The position numbers and the translations under genes were made by a program. From assembly GCF_024298765.1 (NCBI RefSeq), contig NZ_CP101210.1: a DNA stretch of 64,000 nucleotides; one strand, written 5' to 3'. Below are positions 6,041 to 59,581 of this stretch, piece after piece; the first letter of the stretch is position 1; the number at the start of each line of letters is the position of its first letter. The notes under the pieces are model-generated. The model was not told the DNA's origin. It saw nothing but the letters and a program-made list of their open reading frames with translations, and searched no databases. This DNA comes from Escherichia coli. Lineage in GTDB: Bacteria > Pseudomonadota > Gammaproteobacteria > Enterobacterales > Enterobacteriaceae.

Positions 6041-6400
6041 TTATCCACGTTTCAGTTTAAGCGCCAATGATAGAGCATTCTGTGATAGTGGATCATGGGG
6101 AAAGATCACATCGGGCTGTAAATCACCCGCATGCATGCCGGTAATTGCGGGAATTTTTTGCGGTCGGGCGAAGACGGTCAGTCCTTTCATAAACAAGGTG
6201 TCGACGATGCGCTGCTGATCGTCCAGCGCAATAGCGACCACGACCCGCGGTTTAAAGCGCCCGCTGGAACGGCCCACGCCAACCCTCCCTTGCTGGCATA
6301 GCGTGTCGAAGGCACGGTTAAAACGAGAAATTTGCCAACCGCCTAAGGCCAGTTGCGCACACCAGGCGATAACGGCGACGGTGATGAGTGCGGATACCAT
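6041..6400 (-). CDS. gutM: Glucitol operon activator GutM
   Basis: 119-aa ORF between srlD and srlR; synteny. Confidence 0.85.
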   Translation of the reverse strand: MVSALITVAVIAWCAQLALGGWQISRFNRAFDTLCQQGRVGVGRSSGRFKPRVVVAIALDDQQRIVDTLFMKGLTVFARPQKIPAITGMHAGDLQPDVIFPHDPLSQNALSLALKLKRG

Positions 6401-13009: not shown

Positions 13010-15640
13010 ATGAGCAAGAGCACCGCTGAGATCCGTCAGGCGTTTCTCGACTTTTTCCATAGTAAGGGACATCAGGTAGTTGCCAGCAGCTCCCTGGTAC
13101 CCCATAACGACCCAACTTTGTTGTTTACCAACGCCGGGATGAACCAGTTCAAGGATGTGTTCCTTGGGCTCGACAAGCGTAATTATTCCCGCGCTACCAC
13201 TTCCCAACGCTGCGTGCGTGCGGGTGGTAAACACAACGACCTGGAAAACGTCGGTTACACCGCGCGTCACCATACCTTCTTCGAAATGCTGGGCAACTTC
13301 AGCTTCGGCGACTATTTCAAACACGATGCCATTCAGTTTGCATGGGAACTGCTGACCAGCGAAAAATGGTTTGCCCTGCCGAAAGAGCGTCTGTGGGTTA
13401 CCGTCTATGAAAGCGACGACGAAGCCTACGAAATCTGGGAAAAAGAAGTAGGGATCCCGCGCGAACGTATTATTCGCATCGGCGATAACAAAGGTGCGCC
13501 ATACGCATCTGACAACTTCTGGCAGATGGGTGACACTGGTCCGTGCGGCCCGTGCACCGAAATCTTCTACGATCACGGCGACCACATTTGGGGTGGCCCT
13601 CCGGGAAGTCCGGAAGAAGACGGCGACCGCTACATTGAGATCTGGAACATCGTCTTCATGCAGTTCAACCGCCAGGCCGATGGCACGATGGAACCGCTGC
13701 CGAAGCCGTCTGTAGATACCGGTATGGGTCTGGAGCGTATTGCTGCGGTGCTGCAACACGTTAACTCTAACTATGACATCGACCTGTTCCGCACGTTGAT
13801 CCAGGCGGTAGCGAAAGTCACTGGCGCAACCGATCTGAGCAATAAATCGCTGCGCGTAATCGCTGACCACATTCGTTCTTGTGCCTTCCTGATCGCGGAT
13901 GGCGTAATGCCGTCCAATGAAAACCGTGGTTATGTACTGCGTCGTATCATTCGTCGCGCAGTGCGTCACGGTAATATGCTCGGCGCGAAAGAAACCTTCT
14001 TCTACAAACTGGTTGGTCCGCTGATCGACGTTATGGGCTCTGCGGGTGAAGACCTGAAACGCCAGCAGGCGCAGGTTGAGCAGGTGCTGAAGACTGAAGA
14101 AGAGCAGTTTGCTCGTACTCTGGAGCGCGGTCTGGCGTTGCTGGATGAAGAGCTGGCAAAACTTTCTGGTGATACGCTGGATGGTGAAACTGCTTTCCGT
14201 CTGTACGACACCTATGGCTTCCCGGTTGACCTGACGGCTGACGTTTGTCGTGAGCGCAACATCAAAGTTGACGAAGCTGGTTTTGAAGCAGCAATGGAAG
14301 AGCAGCGTCGTCGCGCGCGCGAAGCCAGCGGCTTTGGTGCCGATTACAACGCAATGATCCGTGTTGACAGTGCATCTGAATTTAAAGGCTATGACCATCT
14401 GGAACTGAACGGCAAAGTGACCGCGCTGTTTGTTGATGGTAAAGCGGTTGATGCCATCAATGCAGGCCAGGAAGCTGTGGTCGTGCTGGATCAAACGCCA
14501 TTCTATGCGGAATCCGGCGGTCAGGTTGGTGATAAAGGCGAACTGAAAGGCGCTAACTTCTCCTTCGTGGTGGAAGATACGCAGAAATACGGCCAGGCGA
14601 TTGGTCACATCGGTAAACTTGCTGCGGGTTCTCTGAAAGTGGGCGACGCTGTGCAGGCTGATGTTGATGAGGCTCGTCGCGCCCGTATTCGTCTGAATCA
14701 CTCCGCAACGCACCTGATGCACGCTGCGCTGCGCCAGGTTCTGGGTACTCATGTATCGCAGAAAGGTTCACTGGTTAACGACAAGGTGCTGCGCTTCGAC
14801 TTCTCACACAACGAAGCGATGAAACCGGAAGAGATTCGTGCGGTCGAAGACCTGGTGAACGCACAGATTCGTCGCAATTTGCCGATCGAAACCAACATCA
14901 TGGATCTCGAAGCGGCGAAAGCGAAAGGTGCGATGGCGCTGTTCGGCGAGAAGTATGATGAGCGCGTACGCGTGCTGAGCATGGGCGATTTCTCCACCGA
15001 GCTGTGTGGCGGTACTCACGCCAGCCGCACTGGTGATATTGGTCTGTTCCGCATCATCTCTGAATCGGGTACTGCTGCAGGCGTTCGTCGTATTGAAGCG
15101 GTAACCGGAGAAGGCGCTATCGCCACCGTTCATGCAGACAGCGATCGCTTAAGCGAAGTCGCACATCTGCTGAAAGGCGATAGCAATAATCTGGCTGATA
15201 AAGTGCGCTCAGTACTGGAACGTACGCGTCAGTTAGAAAAAGAACTACAACAGCTTAAAGAACAAGCTGCCGCACAGGAGAGCGCAAATCTTTCCAGTAA
15301 GGCAATTGATGTTAATGGTGTTAAGCTGTTGGTTAGCGAGCTTAGCGGTGTTGAGCCGAAAATGTTGCGTACCATGGTTGACGATTTAAAAAATCAGCTG
15401 GGGTCGACAATTATCGTGCTGGCAACGGTAGCCGAAGGTAAGGTTTCTCTGATTGCAGGCGTATCTAAGGACGTCACAGATCGTGTGAAAGCAGGGGAAC
15501 TGATTGGTATGGTCGCTCAGCAGGTGGGCGGCAAGGGTGGTGGACGTCCTGACATGGCGCAAGCCGGTGGTACGGATGCTGCGGCCTTACCTGCAGCGTT
15601 AGCCAGTGTGAAAGGCTGGGTCAGCGCGAAATTGCAATAA
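13010..15640 (+). CDS. alaS: Alanine--tRNA ligase
   Basis: 876-aa ORF; class II aaRS motifs; synteny recX-alaS-csrA. Confidence 0.97.
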
Positions 15641-16375: not shown

Positions 16376-16468
16376 GGTGAGGTGGCCGAGAGGCTGAAGG
16401 CGCTCCCCTGCTAAGGGAGTATGCGGTCAAAAGCTGCATCCGGGGTTCGAATCCCCGCCTCACCGCCA
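16376..16468 (+). tRNA. serV: tRNA-Ser (anticodon GCU)
   Basis: 93-nt sequence GGTGAGGTGGCCGAGAGG...CCGCCTCACCGCCA with long variable arm; anticodon loop CT-GCT-AA. Confidence 0.92.
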
Positions 16469-16471
16469 TTT

Positions 16472-16548
16472 GCATCCGTAGCTCAGCTGGATAGAGTACT
16501 CGGCTACGAACCGAGCGGTCGGAGGTTCGAATCCTCCCGGATGCACCA
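16472..16548 (+). tRNA. argV: tRNA-Arg (anticodon ACG), copy 1
   Basis: 77-nt GCATCCGTAGCTCAGCTGGATAGAGTACTCGGCTACGAACCGAGCGGTCGGAGGTTCGAATCCTCCCGGATGCACCA. Confidence 0.93.
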
Positions 16549-16746
16549 TATTCTACGTACCTTCAGCGATGAAGGTATGGAAGAGGTGGCGGTAATAACC
16601 GCAGGCACCAGGGAGGATAACGTTGCTTTAGCAACGGCCCGAAGGGCGAGCCGCAAGGCGAGTAATCCTCCCGGATGCACCATCTCTTACTTGATAGGGC
16701 TTTAGTAGCGGTATCAAAAAATCTGCAGTAAAGTAAGTTTCCCGAT
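16549..16746 (+). repeat. tRNA-cluster spacer repeat ending in a duplicated tRNA-Arg 3' end
   Basis: Hairpins cttcagcgatgaag and gttgctttagcaac, then cctcccggatgcacca without a preceding tRNA body; near-identical copy at 17103-17236. Confidence 0.7.
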
Positions 16747-16823
16747 GCATCCGTAGCTCAGCTGGATAGAGTACTCGGCTACGAACCGAGCGGTCGGAGG
16801 TTCGAATCCTCCCGGATGCACCA
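16747..16823 (+). tRNA. argY: tRNA-Arg (anticodon ACG), copy 2
   Basis: Identical 77-nt tRNA-Arg sequence. Confidence 0.92.
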
Positions 16824-16885
16824 TCTCTTACTTGATATGGCTTTAGTAGCGGTATCAATATCAGCAGTAAAATAAATTTTCCGAT

Positions 16886-16962
16886 GCATCCGTAGCTCAG
16901 CTGGATAGAGTACTCGGCTACGAACCGAGCGGTCGGAGGTTCGAATCCTCCCGGATGCACCA
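16886..16962 (+). tRNA. argZ: tRNA-Arg (anticodon ACG), copy 3
   Basis: Identical 77-nt tRNA-Arg sequence. Confidence 0.92.
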
Positions 16963-17025
16963 TCTCTTACTTGATATGGCCTTAGTAGCGATATCAATAT
17001 CAGCAGTAAAATAAATTTTCCCGAT

Positions 17026-17102
17026 GCATCCGTAGCTCAGCTGGATAGAGTACTCGGCTACGAACCGAGCGGTCGGAGGTTCGAATCCTCCCGGATGCAC
17101 CA
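17026..17102 (+). tRNA. argQ: tRNA-Arg (anticodon ACG), copy 4
   Basis: Identical 77-nt tRNA-Arg sequence. Confidence 0.92.
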
Positions 17103-20013: not shown

Positions 20014-20086
20014 AAAAAGGCCACTCGTGAGTGGCCAAAATTTCATCTCTGAATTCAGGGATGATGATAACAAATGCGCGTCTTTC
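20014..20086 (-). ncRNA. micA: MicA (SraD) small regulatory RNA
   Basis: Reverse strand reads GAAAGACGCGCATTTGTTATCATCATCCCTGAATTCAGAGATGAAATTTTGGCCACTCACGAGTGGCCTTTTT with terminal hairpin; lies between gshA and luxS. Confidence 0.9.
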
Positions 20087-26579: not shown

Positions 26580-26687
26580 TATTTTTGTTCATCAGGTGAT
26601 GATTAAGCTGGAAATCAATAATAGCGGATGTTGATGAATATGGGATGAAAGATAGATTGTTGAAATGTGCGGTGTGGTTTGTAGGTA

Positions 26688-26760
26688 TGATAAGACGCAC
26701 CAGCGTCGCATCAGGCATTGTGTACAGAGCGGCGGATGAGGCAAAAACGCCTTATCCGCC
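26688..26760. repeat. REP/BIME palindromic elements
   Basis: tgataagacgcaccagcgtcgcatcaggc and ggcggatgaggcaaaaacgccttatccgcc between ygaY and proX. Confidence 0.7.
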
Positions 26761-26770
26761 CGAATAAAAA

Positions 26771-48252: not shown

Positions 48253-49425
48253 TTAAGTGGCTTTTTTTGTGATATTGCTGGTCGTATTACCGTCATATTC
48301 CTTTAAATATAAACCATAATGACGAAATAACATTTCCGGCCCTTTATGCCCCATTTGAGCTGCAAGCCAAAACAGGTTTGCTCCCCGGCTGATATGGCGG
48401 GTGGCGAATGTATGCCTAGTTTGATATGGATTTCTGTAACGAATACCTGCTTTTCGCAATGTTGGCACCCATGCTTTTTTCCTGATTGCATCAGCACTTG
48501 CCCAAGGCTTATTGGTCTTTGGATCTTCAAAGACAGTAGTATCCTTCATGAATGTAAATGGCTTCTGATTTATCAGCGCCAACATTGCCTCTTCTGTCAG
48601 TTCAACTTTCCGAGTACCTGCTTTTGTCTTTGTCCCTTTGATAACACCGACAACACTTGCGCTCTGGACATGGGCAGTTTTTCCAACAAAGTCGATATCA
48701 CGCCATCGAAGGGCACATAATTCAGAACTACGCAGGCCTGTATGTATAGCGAACCGGAACAGATTTTCCCATTGTTTGTTTCCGGCTGCTGCTAGTAATG
48801 CATCAACTTCTGCTGGTGATAGCGGATCAACTACGTAGCTGCTTTCTGCTTCTGACTTATCACTTTGGTAGCGCGAAGCTGTTACTAACGATACGGGGTT
48901 AATTTGAAGTACCCCATCGGTCACGGCTTCATCAAGTGCTGACCGCAGGAAAGATAACTGGTTGCGAATTGTTTTTAAGGTCGTTTTCTGATTTTGAATC
49001 CACGCTTTCAGGGTTGCTGGTGTTAATTCACTTGCAGGGCAAATGTGAAGTGAGGCTAACGCACTACGGCATTTTTTATAGCCACCAATCGTAGAGGGTG
49101 AAAGTTTTCTTGTTTCGCAGATTTCAAGATATTCGTCCAGGTACATCTTTACCGTTTTGCCTGCAGCAGCATTACCAAAAATTTTCAAACGAGCAGAACG
49201 GGGAAAATATTCTGCATAAATGAATGTTCCCCTTTCGATCTTATTATGGATTTCGCCGAGTGTACGCTCGGCGTATTTAATGTTCTTTGGTGTTACTTCC
49301 AGATTGGAAAGCGGCTCACGACATCTAACTCCTTTGTAGGTGAAAGTTATATTGATCGTTTCTCCCTGGCGGTGTTTCCTGATTGTTACGCCGCGCGGTA
49401 GTTTGAGCAGTTTTGTCTGGCCCAT
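48253..49425 (-). CDS. int: Phage integrase (tyrosine recombinase)
   Basis: 390-aa ORF with N-terminal arm-binding-like domain and C-terminal catalytic region (RHTFATRH ... LFRHYGLY). Confidence 0.9.
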   Translation of the reverse strand: MGQTKLLKLPRGVTIRKHRQGETINITFTYKGVRCREPLSNLEVTPKNIKYAERTLGEIHNKIERGTFIYAEYFPRSARLKIFGNAAAGKTVKMYLDEYLEICETRKLSPSTIGGYKKCRSALASLHICPASELTPATLKAWIQNQKTTLKTIRNQLSFLRSALDEAVTDGVLQINPVSLVTASRYQSDKSEAESSYVVDPLSPAEVDALLAAAGNKQWENLFRFAIHTGLRSSELCALRWRDIDFVGKTAHVQSASVVGVIKGTKTKAGTRKVELTEEAMLALINQKPFTFMKDTTVFEDPKTNKPWASADAIRKKAWVPTLRKAGIRYRNPYQTRHTFATRHISRGANLFWLAAQMGHKGPEMLFRHYGLYLKEYDGNTTSNITKKAT

Positions 49426-51261: not shown

Positions 51262-52086
51262 TCAGGCGGTGAAAGTCCCAATAAAGGTTTCTACTTTGCT
51301 GTCCTTGAATTTCTCAACAAGCAGATCACGAAATTCGTTAGCCATATCTTCCTGCACCGCTTCCAGCTGAATAATGCGCAGAACCAGTACAGGACGATCG
51401 CCAGTGATAATGCTGAGGCGTAATTTAAACGGACGTTCTTTCAGACCTTCAAACGGAACGCATTTAAACTCAAATGCCACTGGCATAATGTCTTTGGTCT
51501 TCGCTTCGACAGACTCCATCAGGGAGCGTTTGCCGCTGAAGTCATTATCTTCAAAATCAGCAGTCTGGTTTGCTTCAATCGTGATTTTACGGACCGCCGC
51601 AGCCGCTTTTGTTGCCTGAATGGTGTCACCATTAGCATCAAAGCCCACAAGATAGTCGGCCCAGTCTTCGATCCATTCTGCCAGTGATTTCTGGGAGTTA
51701 CGCTCTCCATTAACAGACAACAGAGCAGAGAACGGTGCTGTCTTTTTCAGTTTGAGAGTGGCGGTGTTATCTGCGTGACCTGGTTCATCAATAGTACCCA
51801 GGTTAAGCACACTGACGGCACGCATATTATCAGCATCGATAAAGCAGCGGGTGCCTTCATCTGCAAGATCTTTAGAATAACGGGTAAAGTCATCAATGCT
51901 GGCAGTGGAAAGCGCACCACGGAAACGGAAGCGATTTAAATTAAATTTTTCCAGATCATGAATGCGGAAATTCTCAGGCAATGCCACAGCATCGGCACCA
52001 ATCTTACTGATAATTTCATTAACACCCTGAGCAGAAATAAGAGCATGGATTTGATTAATTGCGGTTGCGTCTAAGTTCTGAGACAT
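51262..52086 (-). CDS. Phage protein, YfdQ-like (DUF2303 family)
   Basis: 274-aa ORF adjacent to the YfdR-like gene; size and neighbourhood match CPS-53 YfdQ (from memory). Confidence 0.6.
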
Positions 52087-52151
52087 AATAAGTCCTCACT
52101 ATATAAAGATATTCAGTGATGAGATAAATAATCAGTTAATTAAGAACGATA

Positions 52152-52514
52152 TTAATGACCTGCTGCGCGGAGTTTTCCGTCAGGCTCACCGGCAAGAGTC
52201 AGTAATTGTCCCTGGTCTTCCTGCAGAATAGTCAGGCGACCACCGCGATTGACATACATCGGCGTTTCGGTGGTGTCTTCTTCGGAAATTTTCCCACGGT
52301 TAGTCGGGCGAACATATGAGAGTTTGTGTTTGATTTTCACACGGTTCTCATCAAATGGTTCGATTTCCAGGTTGAGTGAGACCTTACCTTTGGTTTTCGT
52401 GTTCATCACACCGGAAGCGACTTCACTGAGAACTGCGCCGATTTTGGTTTCAAATACGCCGCCGTCCAGCTCCCCGATAAATGCCTGCACATCAGTACTG
52501 CGTTCGCTAGCCAT
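52152..52514 (-). CDS. Phage hypothetical protein, possibly YfdP-like
   Basis: Start placed at MASERSTDVQ (ATG ~52514) with SD AGGAG; about 120 aa; the longer ORF-track extension runs through an 18-bp inverted repeat. Confidence 0.55.
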   Translation of the reverse strand: MASERSTDVQAFIGELDGGVFETKIGAVLSEVASGVMNTKTKGKVSLNLEIEPFDENRVKIKHKLSYVRPTNRGKISEEDTTETPMYVNRGGRLTILQEDQGQLLTLAGEPDGKLRAAGH

Positions 52515-52857
52515 TTTGCTGCTCCTCATCATATCGACCCTGCAAGGCCGATTAGTTTCTCCACAAAACAGAGAAGAACACCTGCGGTGGCAGCCGCCCG
52601 GATGGATTGGGTTATGAGCCCGTCGTCCGATGATGTTCTTCTCTGTTTTGTAAAAAGAGCGGTACCAGCCGGAAGCAAGTGTACAAACTGGTACCGCCAA
52701 AGCAGTGGCTGTTGTGGTGACCGGTGCTGATCTCCGGCTTGCGGTTATTTCAGACTCTCACGGGCGTTTAATTGCCCCGCCGAACAGCTCTTTTCCGCAA
52801 TAGCTGCAATGTCTTTCGCGCATCAGCCTGCGCATTCACCACAACTCTAAAAACAAA

Positions 52858-52908
52858 TGTAGGATATCCAACGTGTGGGTGTCAAGAGTTTATGTTGGTT
52901 ATCCTACA
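52858..52908. promoter_or_regulatory. OL-like operator pair (repressor binding palindromes)
   Basis: tgtaggatatccaac (52858-52872) and tgttggttatcctaca (52893-52908); same half-site family as the OR sites. Confidence 0.6.
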
Positions 52909-52925
52909 TAAAAAGATAGGCTCAT

Positions 52926-52951
52926 AAAAAAACCGGGGATACCCCGGTTTT
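52926..52951 (-). terminator. Rho-independent terminator downstream of the cI-like gene (bidirectional-capable)
   Basis: ccgggg-ata-ccccgg hairpin flanked by A7 and T4. Confidence 0.65.
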
Positions 52952-52971
52952 GCGATAGTGAGGAAGATGTG

Positions 52972-53625
52972 TCAAAAATCCATTATTACTTGTTTGACAA
53001 GACCAACTATTCTGCAGTTCTCACCGCATTCAATAGTTTTATAGTTAGGATTTAGTGGGACGAGATACCTGTTCGGCCAGTCCTCAACAAATTTTTTGAG
53101 TGTCGCTTCTTGCCCACCATTGATATGGGCAACAACGATTTTTCCGTTAATACACTCTGTATCAATAATATCTGGCTCTACGATAACGATAGAACCTTCT
53201 GGTATCGATGGTGAGCCGAGGGGATTGGTCATTGAATCACCACGGACCCGTAGTGCAAATGCCATTTCTGATACAAGGGCGGTAGTATAAACCCACTCTT
53301 CAGCATCTTCTTTCCTGACACCAGGCTCCGTCATTGTCCATGAACCCGCCTGAACCCACGAGATGAGGGGGACTTTTTTAACTGCGAATATTTCAGGTTT
53401 TAGATTTATCTTTGGTTCAGGCGAGCCTTTTCCGCTAACAAGCCACAGAGGATCGCATTTAAGTGCGTTGGCTAGGGCTTGAAGGTTGGCTCCATTTGGT
53501 TGGTAGTCGTCCTTTTCCCATCCAGTAACCGTGACACGGTTCACACCAGTCAAATCAGCCAGTGCTTGTTGTGTCAGGTTCAGTTCTTTTCGCCTTTGGC
53601 GAATACGATCACTCATGTTCATCAT
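52972..53625 (-). CDS. CI-like prophage repressor (HTH + S24 LexA-type peptidase domain)
   Basis: 217-aa ORF; N-terminal HTH (LNLTQQALADLTGVNRVTVTGWE), C-terminal GDSM serine motif; divergent from the cro-like gene. Confidence 0.88.
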   Translation of the reverse strand: MMNMSDRIRQRRKELNLTQQALADLTGVNRVTVTGWEKDDYQPNGANLQALANALKCDPLWLVSGKGSPEPKINLKPEIFAVKKVPLISWVQAGSWTMTEPGVRKEDAEEWVYTTALVSEMAFALRVRGDSMTNPLGSPSIPEGSIVIVEPDIIDTECINGKIVVAHINGGQEATLKKFVEDWPNRYLVPLNPNYKTIECGENCRIVGLVKQVIMDF

Positions 53626-53689
53626 GTAGGCAATCCTACCACATGCTCATGTAGGATTCTTGACATTGATATGTTGGATATCCTACATT
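53625..53689. promoter_or_regulatory. OR-like operators and PR/PRM region
   Basis: Palindromes tgtaggcaatcctacc (53625-53640), tgtaggattcttgaca (53650-53665), tgttggatatcctaca (53672-53687); TTGACA -35 at 53660-53665; first operator abuts the cI start codon. Confidence 0.6.
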
Positions 53690-53720
53690 TCTGCTTAACG
53701 TAATTTAACGGGAGACAGAA

Positions 53721-53918
53721 ATGCGGAAATCCGACGTGATTAATTATTTCGGCGGAGTTTGTAAAACCGCCGAAGCCCTAGGTATTAAGCATCCGTCTGT
53801 TTCAGAGTGGCCTGAGATTATTCCTGAAGGCCGAGCGTACCAGTTAGAAAAAATTACTAACGGGAAACTGAAAGTTGACGTGTCTTTATATCAAAAGACT
53901 AACAGTGCTGCGGCATAA
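53721..53918 (+). CDS. Cro-like small DNA-binding protein
   Basis: 65-aa ORF divergent from the repressor with operators between them. Confidence 0.7.
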   Translation: MRKSDVINYFGGVCKTAEALGIKHPSVSEWPEIIPEGRAYQLEKITNGKLKVDVSLYQKTNSAAA

Positions 53919-53945
53919 AAACACCACAGAAATGAGGAATTAACC

Positions 53946-54530
53946 GTGGGTAAAGAACCTGAATGGAAAGTTGATAAACAACCAGCATGGCTGGTGGCAG
54001 CAATACGAAGAACGATTGCTGATTTACCTCATGGCTATGAGGAAGCAGCAGAAATTCTTGGTTTGTATAAATCTGATGATATCACCCCAGCAAAAGATCA
54101 ATTGCATAACAGACTGCGTAGCGGTGGGGATCAAATTTTTCCACTTGAGTGGGCCATGGTTTTACAGGATGCCAGTGGTACCAGGCATGTAACAGATGCA
54201 ATAGCCCGTCGTAGTAATGGGGTGTTTGTGCCGCTGGTGGTCATTGATGACATTGACAATGGTGACATTAATCAGCGGCTGATGGAGTCAATAGAATGGA
54301 TTGGCAAGCATTCCCAGTACTTACGCAAGGCAACTGCTGATGGAGTTATTGACCAAGCTGAGCGTGAGCAAATCGAAGAGAACAGCTACCAAGTAATGGC
54401 GAAGTGGCAGGAGCATTTAACACTGTTATTTCGTGTTTTTTGTGCGCCGGAAAAGAGTAACGCCCGCGAGTGTGCAGCTCCGGGCGTCGTGGCGTCGATT
54501 GCTTCTGGTTGTGGAGAAACTAACGCATGA
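53946..54530 (+). CDS. Phage regulatory protein, CII-like (tentative)
   Basis: 194-aa ORF directly after cro in the cII position; family assignment from position and vague similarity only. Confidence 0.45.
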
Positions 54531-57819: not shown

Positions 57820-58815
57820 GTGACCGTGAGAGCACTACTGACCCCTGAAATTGCCCCGCGTATGGGGATCGTATTGTTCAGACCAGGTTCAGAGCTGATG
57901 CCCTTGTTTATGCAGGGGCGTGTCCTGCTGGAGCCTGAGCCGGAACGTTATTCATCTTTCGCCAGTGGTGCCGTTCCGGCGGCATCACAACCGCTGGCGG
58001 ATGATCCTGCCGTTCGGGCCGTGTTCCGCAATGAGGCAGTGATCCGTCGTGCTGGTGGCGTGGAATGTCTTGAAAGCTGGTTACTTCGTGAAAAAGGCTG
58101 CCAGTGGCCTCATTCCGGCTGGCACAGCGAGAACATGACAACAATGCGACACGCTCCGGGCGCAATCCGTCTGTGCTGGCACTGCGATAACCAGCTGCGC
58201 GATCAGTTCACGGAACGGCTGGAATCAATGGCAACGGATAACTGTGCCCGCTGGGTGTTGTCTGTTGTGCGTCGGGATCTCGGTTTTGATGACAGTCATG
58301 TTGTGACAATGCCGGAACTGTGCTGGTGGCTGATTCGTAATGATCTGGCGGATGCCTTACCGGAAAGTGCAGCCCGTAAGGCACTGAGATTACCGAAGCC
58401 TGTTGTGCCGTCTGTTACCCGGGAAAGTGACCTTGTGCCTTCGGTTCCTGCCACCAGCATCATCCAGGATAAGGCGAAAAAGGTGCTGGCGCTGAAAGTG
58501 GATCCGGAGTCGCCGGAGTCTTTTATGTTACGCCCAAAACGTCGCCGCTGGGTTAATGAAAAGTACACGCGCTGGGTTAAGACACAGCCGTGTGCATGTT
58601 GTGGAAAGCCCGCTGATGATCCCCACCACCTGATAGGTCACGGTCAGGGTGGAATGGGAACAAAAGCGCATGACCTCTTTGTGTTGCCTTTGTGCAGAAA
58701 GCATCACGACGAGCTGCATGCGGATACCGTGGCATTTGAAGAGAAGTATGGCTCTCAGCTGGAGCTGATATTTCGTTTTATCGATCGTGCGCTGGCAATT
58801 GGCGTATTGGCGTAA
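57820..58815 (+). CDS. DUF968-family phage protein (YdfU-like)
   Basis: 331-aa ORF with GTG start; C-terminal Cys/His-rich region (QPCACCGKPADDPHHLIGHG ... CRKHHDELH); usual position between rusA and Q. Confidence 0.65.
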   Translation: MTVRALLTPEIAPRMGIVLFRPGSELMPLFMQGRVLLEPEPERYSSFASGAVPAASQPLADDPAVRAVFRNEAVIRRAGGVECLESWLLREKGCQWPHSGWHSENMTTMRHAPGAIRLCWHCDNQLRDQFTERLESMATDNCARWVLSVVRRDLGFDDSHVVTMPELCWWLIRNDLADALPESAARKALRLPKPVVPSVTRESDLVPSVPATSIIQDKAKKVLALKVDPESPESFMLRPKRRRWVNEKYTRWVKTQPCACCGKPADDPHHLIGHGQGGMGTKAHDLFVLPLCRKHHDELHADTVAFEEKYGSQLELIFRFIDRALAIGVLA

Positions 58816-58828
58816 GTGGAGAACGAGC

Positions 58829-59581
58829 ATGAACCTTGAAGCCTTACCAAAATATTACTCCCCAAAATCTCCAAAATTGAGCGATGACGCACCGGCGACA
58901 GGCTCTGGTGGTTTAACAATTACGGATGTAATGGCTGCGCAGGGGATGGTGCAGTCGAAAGCACCGCTTGGGTTTGCCTTATTCCTGGCAAAAGTTGGTG
59001 TTCAGGATCCTCAGTTTGCGATTGAAGGTCTGCTCAATTACGCGATGGCACTGGATAACCCGACATTGAATAAATTGAGTGAAGAAACCCGGCTACAGAT
59101 CATTCCTTACCTTGTGAATTTTGCCTTTGCTGATTATTCCAGGTCTGCGGCAAGTAAGGCTCGCTGTGAGCATTGTGCTGGTACTGGATTTCATAATGTA
59201 TTGCGCGAGGTGGTGAAACACTCCAGAAGCGGGGAATCTGTTATCAAGGAAGAGTGGGTGAAGGAACTATGTCAGCATTGTCATGGTAAGGGAGAAGTCA
59301 GCACAGCGTGCAGAGGGTGTAAGGGTAAAGGTATTGTCCTGGATGAAAAAAGAACCCGGCTTCATGGTACGCCTGTTTATAAGATTTGTGGGCGTTGCAA
59401 TGGTAACCGTTTTAGCCGTTTACCAACCACACTGGCGCGGCATCATGTCCAGAAGCTGGTACCAGACCTGACGGATTATCAGTGGTACAAAGGATATGCA
59501 GATGTCATTGATAAACTGGTTACAAAGTGCTGGCAGGAAGAAGCATATGCAGAGACACAATTGAGAAAAGTGACAAGATAA
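58829..59581 (+). CDS. Late gene antiterminator Q
   Basis: Start at MNLEALPKYY with SD ggaga; zinc-finger-like CEHCAGTG ... CQHCHGKG ... CRGCKGKG ... CGRCNG; followed by late promoter/terminator region. Confidence 0.8.
   Translation: MNLEALPKYYSPKSPKLSDDAPATGSGGLTITDVMAAQGMVQSKAPLGFALFLAKVGVQDPQFAIEGLLNYAMALDNPTLNKLSEETRLQIIPYLVNFAFADYSRSAASKARCEHCAGTGFHNVLREVVKHSRSGESVIKEEWVKELCQHCHGKGEVSTACRGCKGKGIVLDEKRTRLHGTPVYKICGRCNGNRFSRLPTTLARHHVQKLVPDLTDYQWYKGYADVIDKLVTKCWQEEAYAETQLRKVTR

Follow-up and report, generated by a model that had tools for sequence, protein, structure and literature searches.

The lambda N leader and T7 early mRNAs contain RNase III sites, long near-perfect hairpins that lie in an early leader just before the first ribosome-binding site. 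Mimics of parts of tRNAs are known from mRNAs and small RNAs, among them the thrS operator, viral tRNA-like structures, YrlA, mascRNA and the P1/P7 C4 RNA precursor, which is cut by RNase P. The putL and putR elements of HK022 are cis-encoded structured leader RNAs of lambdoid early operons in N-less phages, built of two adjacent stems with conserved unpaired bases; they lie upstream of terminators, in both the PL and the PR operon, have no enclosing stem and act through the beta´ zinc-binding domain of RNA polymerase. Here we show that an inverted repeat in the early-left leader of an Escherichia coli prophage, analysed within a 64,000-nt stretch of contig NZ_CP101210.1 (hereafter the window), is the outer stem of a conserved, portable, strand-specific noncoding RNA of Enterobacterales temperate phages, which has a tRNA-fMet-like apex and occurs in two forms. 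The element shares with the lambda and T7 sites its long near-perfect hairpin and its placement, but it lacks a conserved boxA, a boxB and N, and its hairpin bears a conserved three-way junction as cargo. It differs from put in lying downstream of a terminator-like hairpin, in being present as a single copy, in its 25-bp enclosing stem and in also having a tRNA-like gene form, and it has no sequence or structure match to put. The element appears to be an undescribed RNA family, akin to tRNA-part mimics and phage leader RNAs: no description of it was found in the searchable literature, and the Rfam scan that an earlier note on this DNA had proposed, carried out with Rfam 15, returned no family matching it at E<=1 for the region, at the gathering score for the whole window (where the prophage gave no match at all), or in 10 related loci.

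The immunity region of the prophage is of the lambdoid type, with a cI-like repressor gene (52972-53625, minus strand), Cro-like (53721-53918), CII-like (53946-54530) and Q-like (58787-59581) genes and an integrase gene (48253-49425). A PL-like sigma-70 promoter, TTGACA-18-TACATT (52856-52885, minus strand), overlaps an operator-like inverted repeat (52857-52872 / 52894-52909) and has hexamers identical to those of a PR-like promoter (53660-53689, plus strand). The leftward operon runs yfdP, yfdQ, yfdR, an unknown ORF, xis and int. Its first gene, of the yfdP family (52152-52514, minus strand), has the Shine-Dalgarno sequence GAGGAG at 52522-52527 and its ATG at 52512-52514; from the positions of this ATG and the PL-like promoter, the leftward transcript has a non-coding leader of ~335 nt. 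No N-like protein is encoded in the leftward operon. The surroundings are as the earlier note had drawn them. Between cI and PL, immediately past the cI-like gene, a perfect 10-bp hairpin, AAAACCGGGG...CCCCGGTTTT (52929-52951), with A-runs and T-runs on its flanks, resembles a bidirectional terminator. Outside the prophage, the window contains host features, namely a cluster of tRNA-Ser and four tRNA-Arg genes, MicA and an naRNA4 (REP-type) element (16376-17102, 20015-20086 and 26684-26761); ARAGORN additionally called an overlapping opposite-strand tRNA-Arg at 16492-16563, without support from the Rfam tRNA model.

The repeat itself consists of two 18-nt arms, ACAAAACAGAGAAGAACA at 52563-52580 and its perfect complement at 52634-52651, with 53 nt between them, and a repeat search extends the arms to 25 nt at 88% complementarity. 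By our own arithmetic, 64 kb of sequence should contain about 1e-4 perfect 18-bp inverted repeats with loops of <=100 nt, so the repeat reported earlier is real and far beyond chance. When the minus strand is folded with RNAfold, 25 consecutive pairs join 52632-52656 to 52558-52582, the outermost including G-U pairs between an upstream U-tract and a downstream GGAGA. The folding energy of the element is -47.9 kcal/mol compared to -23.7 +/- 3.3 for shuffles (z -7.3), with none of 200 shuffles folding as well as the native sequence, and folding the element together with the upstream hairpin gives a z of -8.1. The resulting stem, P1, has no mismatches in the window; its 5´ arm (52632-52656, minus strand) and 3´ arm (52558-52582, minus strand) each include one perfect 18-nt arm, such that the 18-bp repeat is the core of the stem, and the U-tract supplies the outer part of the 5´ arm. 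P1 encloses a three-way junction of two further stems, P2 and P3, which abut without a linker, and one unpaired A stands at each side of P1. P2 (52598-52630, minus strand) consists of a lower stem of 5 bp that covaries (52626-52630 / 52598-52602), an internal loop that is invariant, YGAC / AAUCCA (CGAC opposite AAUCCA in the window), inside which RNAalifold places GA-UC pairing, and the apex GGG-CUCAUAA-CCC, with its loop at 52612-52618. P3 (52584-52597, minus strand) is a small hairpin, GCGG-CUGCCA-CCGC, that is variable in sequence and 13-41 nt long in relatives. The three-way-junction module comprises ~63 nt and the whole hairpin 105 nt, which is, as had been remarked, far larger than a lambda boxB hairpin. 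With about two turns of uninterrupted double-stranded RNA (25 bp here, 18-26 bp in relatives), P1 is a predicted RNase III substrate; known substrates of this enzyme have stems of matching length.

Conservation of this structure was assessed with a covariance model, R1, built from 35 sequences and a hand-drawn structure, for which scores of 15-28 bits were regarded as too weak for membership. R1 finds exactly one copy in the window, at 85.5 bits, and matches in all 58 of the 58 selected relatives; by this model the PR operon has no further copy, and put phages lack the element. Among 56 distinct R1 matches, 96.6% of cells are standard pairs and changes on both sides are seen at 11 of 19 pairs (for P2, CCGGA/UCCGG, CCGGG/CCCGG and CCUGA/UCAGG), although these statistics, like the overall conservation, are somewhat inflated by close kinship, by retrieval patterns that fix part of the core and by the model-fitted alignment, A4. 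None of 500 shuffles reached the observed covariation score, slid controls pair at 33-46%, and RNAalifold recovered P1, P2 and P3 from an independent MAFFT alignment of 18 full leaders. The stem is therefore held by compensatory changes in ~60 distinct relatives, the outcome on which the earlier note had made its suggestion depend. U-G pairs recur, for example in 42 of 56 matches at one P1 pair, and would be A-C mismatches on the opposite strand, such that they fit the leftward transcript alone. The other observation named as able to undo the suggestion was translation of the long ORF through the region. Coding by ORF 52152-52700 was rejected, as the distance from core to ATG is 0, 1 and 2 mod 3 in 21, 31 and 39 contexts, respectively, only 27 of 91 contexts are stop-free in frame, and P3 varies in length; the ORF is an upstream extension of yfdP that arose by chance.

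Closest to the promoter, the leader contains a multi-hairpin domain, D1 (52711-52845, minus strand), closed by a 10-bp helix, GUUGUGGUGA / UCACCACAAC. D1 is a separate mosaic module, with a mosaic boundary at about 52699-52719, and E. coli plasmids of ~95 kb carry it by itself. D1 is related to the late-leader sRNAs of the STnc100/PasD type; with the Rfam STnc100 model, whose gathering score is 47, its counterpart in ST64B reaches 35 bits. These prophage sRNAs (RF02076; bioRxiv 10.64898/2026.05.13.724894) neighbour the element in both of the genomic settings described below, in the order STnc100-like domain, terminator, junction element, and they correspond to D1, not to the inverted repeat; the preprint covers D1-type sRNAs and does not describe the junction element. 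Klebsiella phage 2 LV-2017 has a true STnc100 directly after its late promoter, which lies downstream of Q. Given this placement and the likeness of D1 to STnc100, PL may make an STnc100/PasD-like sRNA that terminates at the hairpin following D1.

This hairpin, T (52652-52698 including the U-tract, minus strand), has a 13-bp GC-rich stem (52658-52698) directly before a U-run, UCUUUUU, the arrangement of an intrinsic terminator, and folds at -21.2 kcal/mol (z -4.2); termination here is predicted. A hairpin with a U-run is found in 78 of 81 distinct upstream variants, with differing stem sequences. It is here that the motif taken for boxA lies: CGCUCUUUUUACAA (52661-52648, minus strand) does precede the P1 stem on the transcribed strand, as had been stated, it resembles the boxA consensus and it is in a PL leader, all of which would suit a lambda-like nut site or an rrn-like NusB/NusE-dependent site in which the hairpin takes the role of boxB. 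However, only 24 of 101 distinct contexts have the sequence CGCUC, UUUUU, ACAA. In the remainder, CGCUC is replaced by CGCCC, CGUCC, CGACC, CGCAC or CGCAA followed by 5-7 U, and the "CUC" positions (CCC, UCC, ACC, CAC or CAA) vary in step with the T stem, of which they form the covarying 3´ strand (GGCGGUACC, GGCGGCGUC, GGCGGCAUC, GUCGGCGUC, GCGGUUAUCC). This covariation, together with the likeness of T to sRNA-type terminators, indicates that the "boxA" is the 3´ end of the T stem plus the U-tract, that is, a terminator tail. In addition, N is absent, no boxB-like hairpin was found in the leader, and a 105-nt three-way junction is not a 15-nt boxB. The nut or rrn reading is thus largely refuted by non-conservation, and we consider it highly improbable. 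Of the earlier proposal of a regulatory or antitermination RNA, a conserved structured RNA element in the early-left leader remains, while the boxA/nut part does not.

In many leader-form relatives, AUUGCUGUGUGUAGUCUU together with T matches the 3´ half of RprA, an sRNA-type Rho-independent terminator, at 40.8 bits (E 0.05), which is below the gathering score. This combination of RprA-like AUUGCUGUGUGUAGUCUU, T hairpin and U-run is seen at L005:1370-1506 and at many other leader-form loci (e.g. L015, L003, L036) and may be a phage copy of the Hfq-binding seed and terminator module of the host sRNA; the window copy is without the RprA-like seed and has CAGCCACUGCUUUGGCGG in its place. We also noted a second long hairpin further upstream in several leaders (L029:1442-1743, L005:1203-1504, L010:205-506, L054:3748-4049, L076 and L074), with P1-like CACAAC...GUUGUG outer arms and different cargo. 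Some of these cargos carry tRNA T-arm-like hairpins (GGUUCGAUUCC, UCCGUUCGAUUCGGA), and none was recognized by Rfam or ARAGORN. The GUUGUGG segment has two potential partners, CACAAC upstream and CCACAAC downstream. A promoter within the T loop was considered and rejected: GATAAT is conserved in large-loop variants, where no convincing -35 accompanies it, and is absent from the window.

Downstream, the conserved sequence GGAGAAAC (52555-52562, minus strand) lies just 3´ of the 18-bp repeat. Its GGAGA is what pairs with the U-tract in the predicted fold, and it is also kept in relatives without the U-tract; in the window, the 25-bp P1 is then followed by AACUA. Just upstream of the yfdP ribosome-binding site is H3 (52533-52552, minus strand), an 8-bp hairpin with a UGCA tetraloop. 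H3 is found in 87 of 101 contexts, with covarying stems and UGCA or GGCA loops, at a distance of 5-25 nt from the ribosome-binding site. The apical motif, U-UGCA-G or U-GGCA-G on covarying stems, is seen in the H3 region in these 87 contexts and in P3 in 31 of the 101, and may be a repeated protein-binding hairpin. A search for targets of the CUCAUAA loop found AUGAG at the Shine-Dalgarno sequence or start of yfdP in some contexts and not in others.

The element is widespread. BLAST found it in 71 phage records, including mEp460, cdtI, 2H10, Ayreon, many Stx2a/2c/2k-converting phages, the serotype-converting phages SfV, SfII and SfIV, ST64B, Citrobacter phage phiNP, and Klebsiella and Pantoea phages. 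At a coverage of at least 80%, 2480 of the 5426 complete E. coli genomes (46%) carry it, in up to five copies, and it is mostly unannotated there or buried under "hypothetical protein". Some genomes have the element and no yfdP, and other genes occupy the same position in relatives, which places yfdP outside the RNA module. True copies in a scan of species-representative genomes were limited to Enterobacterales (Citrobacter, Enterobacter, Klebsiella, Kosakonia, Mixta, Pantoea, Phytobacter, Pseudescherichia and Pseudocitrobacter), a record labelled Chryseobacterium being probably contamination, and the core is invariant over Escherichia, Salmonella, Klebsiella, Citrobacter, Enterobacter, Kosakonia, Mixta and Pantoea. 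A genome-wide scan in which the anticodon was left free gave ~18 true hits, all with CAU. The other free-anticodon or relaxed-core hits (L135-L173) trace to DGLFTQSNYGIV, a protein-coding motif conserved in unrelated bacteria (for example, Novosphingobium, Salinisphaera, Desulfacinum and Telmatospirillum), and were discarded as false positives.

These copies fall into two genomic forms. The leader form, to which the window copy belongs, has a P1 of 18-26 bp and lies after the T hairpin; ~100 distinct contexts share the arrangement T hairpin, P1 element, GGAGAAAC, H3, SD-ATG. In the second form, found in Klebsiella-type phages, the core comes after tRNA genes in the interval between Q and the lysis genes, as in Klebsiella phage ST16-OXA48phi5.2, where tRNA-Asn, -Phe, -Thr and -Arg precede it. 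P1 of the second form is a 6-7 bp acceptor-like stem, GGCCUG/CAGGCC, that begins with GGCC, as tRNA-Ile2 presumably does. Of 100 copies, 98 have GCCA or ACCA after this stem, and before the stem stand the preceding RNA's NCCA and GAUAA. The copy in Pantoea phage PA-1, with an 11-bp P1, is intermediate and lies between lysis genes after a canonical terminator. One viral contig, IMGVR_UViG_3300029616_000040 (L179), carries both forms, at 6066-6100 and 14622-14654, 8.5 kb apart, showing that they are not strictly alternatives. Both the downstream genes and the position relative to PL differ among copies, as expected for a portable element.

The invariant core reads YGAC-GGG-CUCAUAA-YCC-AAUCCA, and CGGGCUCAUAACCC is identical over 14 nt to the anticodon arm of E. 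coli tRNA-fMet; the matching tRNA-Met gene is that of the initiator tRNA, present in ~4 copies in 5425 of 5426 E. coli genomes. The apex GGG-CUCAUAA-CCC is the same as in the tRNA-fMet anticodon stem-loop. With the 13-nt apex left free in the search pattern, and hence unconstrained, 239 of 240 copies still had CUCAU. Compensatory variants, AGG/CCU and GGA/UCC, occur in the apical stem, and loop positions 37-38 vary (AA, UA, UC, GA); true tRNAs avoid U at position 37. The mimicry is partial, with three of five anticodon-stem pairs retained. Unlike a tRNA, the element has no D arm and no T loop and is rejected by tRNA models: ARAGORN, in standard and mitochondrial modes, found no tRNA gene in either form, and the Rfam tRNA model had no hit on L006-L008 (E<=10) or on the window element (E<=1). 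An acceptor stem and NCCA are absent from the window copy and present only in the Klebsiella-type form, which adds the acceptor-like stem and RCCA beside tRNA genes. A canonical tRNA was accordingly dismissed, ARAGORN in relaxed mode having given only spurious opposite-strand calls at -ps80. Three further identities were rejected. The Rfam YrlA model for Y RNA has no hit on the element; the hammerhead-like CUGAUGA of the Klebsiella form belongs to a stem that covaries, and the leader form lacks it; and an AgvB-like GcvB sponge, brought to mind by the CACAACA-rich P1 arm, is at odds with the duplex pairing of that arm and with the lack of a match to the Rfam AgvB model.

One explanation of the likeness is that a phage tRNA(CAU) gene, or an attachment site derived from a tRNA, is decaying and has left the present element, which would now be without function. 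The 14-nt identity to tRNA-fMet, the placement of the Klebsiella-phage form in tRNA arrays with RCCA and the presumably tRNA-Ile2-like start of its acceptor-like stem speak for such an origin. Against it, P1, P2 and P3 are all upheld by compensatory changes, the core is invariant over eight genera, and neutral decay does not fit an element carried by 2480 of 5426 E. coli genomes. We regard a functionless remnant as very improbable.

The resemblance in setting to HK022 raises a different explanation, that the element is a new protein-independent processive antiterminator, put-like but unrelated, whose P2 and P3 would bind elongating RNA polymerase and confer terminator resistance in the early-left or late operon. 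The absence of N from the leftward operon fits this, as do the positions in the PL leader and downstream of Q, both classical sites of antitermination signals, and the linker-free abutment of P2 and P3, which recalls the two put stems. Release by processing would also be compatible, since put remains active once untethered from the transcript (PMC9378689). We compared the locus with a covariance model, R2, of seven put RNAs (putL and putR extracted from HK022/O276, HK639, phiEt88, UPF_BP1, CobraSix and S9-5). R2 scores 91-102 bits on seed putL and 47-49 bits on putR sequences that were not in the seed, and finds nothing at E<=10 in window positions 52000-54500 or in 15 related loci. Membership in put was therefore rejected; by-eye similarities (GACGA.CGG, AAxCCAU) had no support from the model. 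Other observations also count against an antiterminator: R1 finds no copy in the PR operon or in put phages, and the element lies downstream of the sole strong terminator-like site, with only one, weak, terminator candidate in the 4.3 kb of leftward operon that follow. Moreover, polymerase in the late operon is already Q-modified, and the RCCA tail and tRNA-array placement are left unexplained. As neither the nut nor the put idea foresees a core that also sits in tRNA arrays with a CCA tail, both are weakened by it, and we consider an antiterminator unlikely.

The reading that we place first, tentatively and at somewhat less than an even chance, is of a portable RNA module of phages that RNase III or tRNA-processing enzymes would excise and that would act through mimicry of the CAU anticodon arm. 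The core is invariant, whereas P1, P3, the flanks and the neighbouring genes vary freely, pointing to the junction as the functional unit. The mimicry and the excision are suggested by the RCCA form among tRNAs, by a P1 of RNase III-substrate length and by the position at the start of the early-left operon, a frequent place for phage counter-defence functions. In the proposed mechanism, the window form would be transcribed from PL, after D1 and the terminator-like hairpin and before the first gene. RNase III would cut the near-perfect 25-bp P1, freeing the junction as a small stable RNA, and the tRNA-array form would be freed by RNase P and 3´ trimming. The freed junction would then work in trans by tying up a factor that recognizes C34-A35-U36 on a GGG:CCC stem, for which MetRS, the 30S P site with IF3, TilS and a tRNA-fMet-specific nuclease such as VapC are candidates.

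A purely trans-acting RNA does not easily account for the flanks of the leader form, as the conserved terminator-like hairpin, GGAGAAAC and H3 suggest that this form has a role in cis too. In the fully cis-acting alternative, the element is an early-left leader in which P1 would be an RNase III site that severs the leader and terminator, P1 together with GGAGAAAC and H3 would set the stability and translation of the first gene, and the junction would be a folding or protein-binding platform. This is consistent with the conserved order from T to SD-ATG in ~100 distinct contexts, with the 18-26 bp of P1, with the 5-25 nt between H3 and the ribosome-binding site, and with the retention of GGAGAAAC where no U-tract is available for pairing. 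However, the same core occurs with an RCCA tail in tRNA arrays, without the long stem or an adjacent gene start, the Pantoea phage PA-1 copy lies between lysis genes, and the downstream gene varies among leader-form copies. An invariant 24-nt core would also be needless for a simple processing site. We consider a solely cis-acting leader a serious alternative, but a rather doubtful one.

A more specific version of mimicry of the CAU anticodon arm is that the RNA is a phage decoy of the initiator-tRNA anticodon arm, soaking up an attacker of tRNA-fMet (e.g. a VapC-type abortive-infection nuclease) or diverting a reader of tRNA-fMet (the 30S P site with IF3, or MetRS). Such a decoy would be made at the very start of early-left transcription or, beside phage tRNAs, late in infection. 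We hold this specific proposal to be improbable as it stands; if true, it would represent RNA-based counter-defence or a takeover of translation initiation.

Apart from the factor involved, the element is a concrete, testable example of a phage RNA that reproduces the initiator tRNA in its most distinctive part. That two different maturation routes are apparently in use points to a function of the excised RNA itself. The leaders in which it is found also show the early-left leaders of N-less lambdoid phages to be chains of RNA modules, in which an STnc100-like domain and an sRNA-type terminator stand alongside long-stem cassettes that carry tRNA-like cargo, and such modular leaders bear on how early transcription is controlled without N or put.
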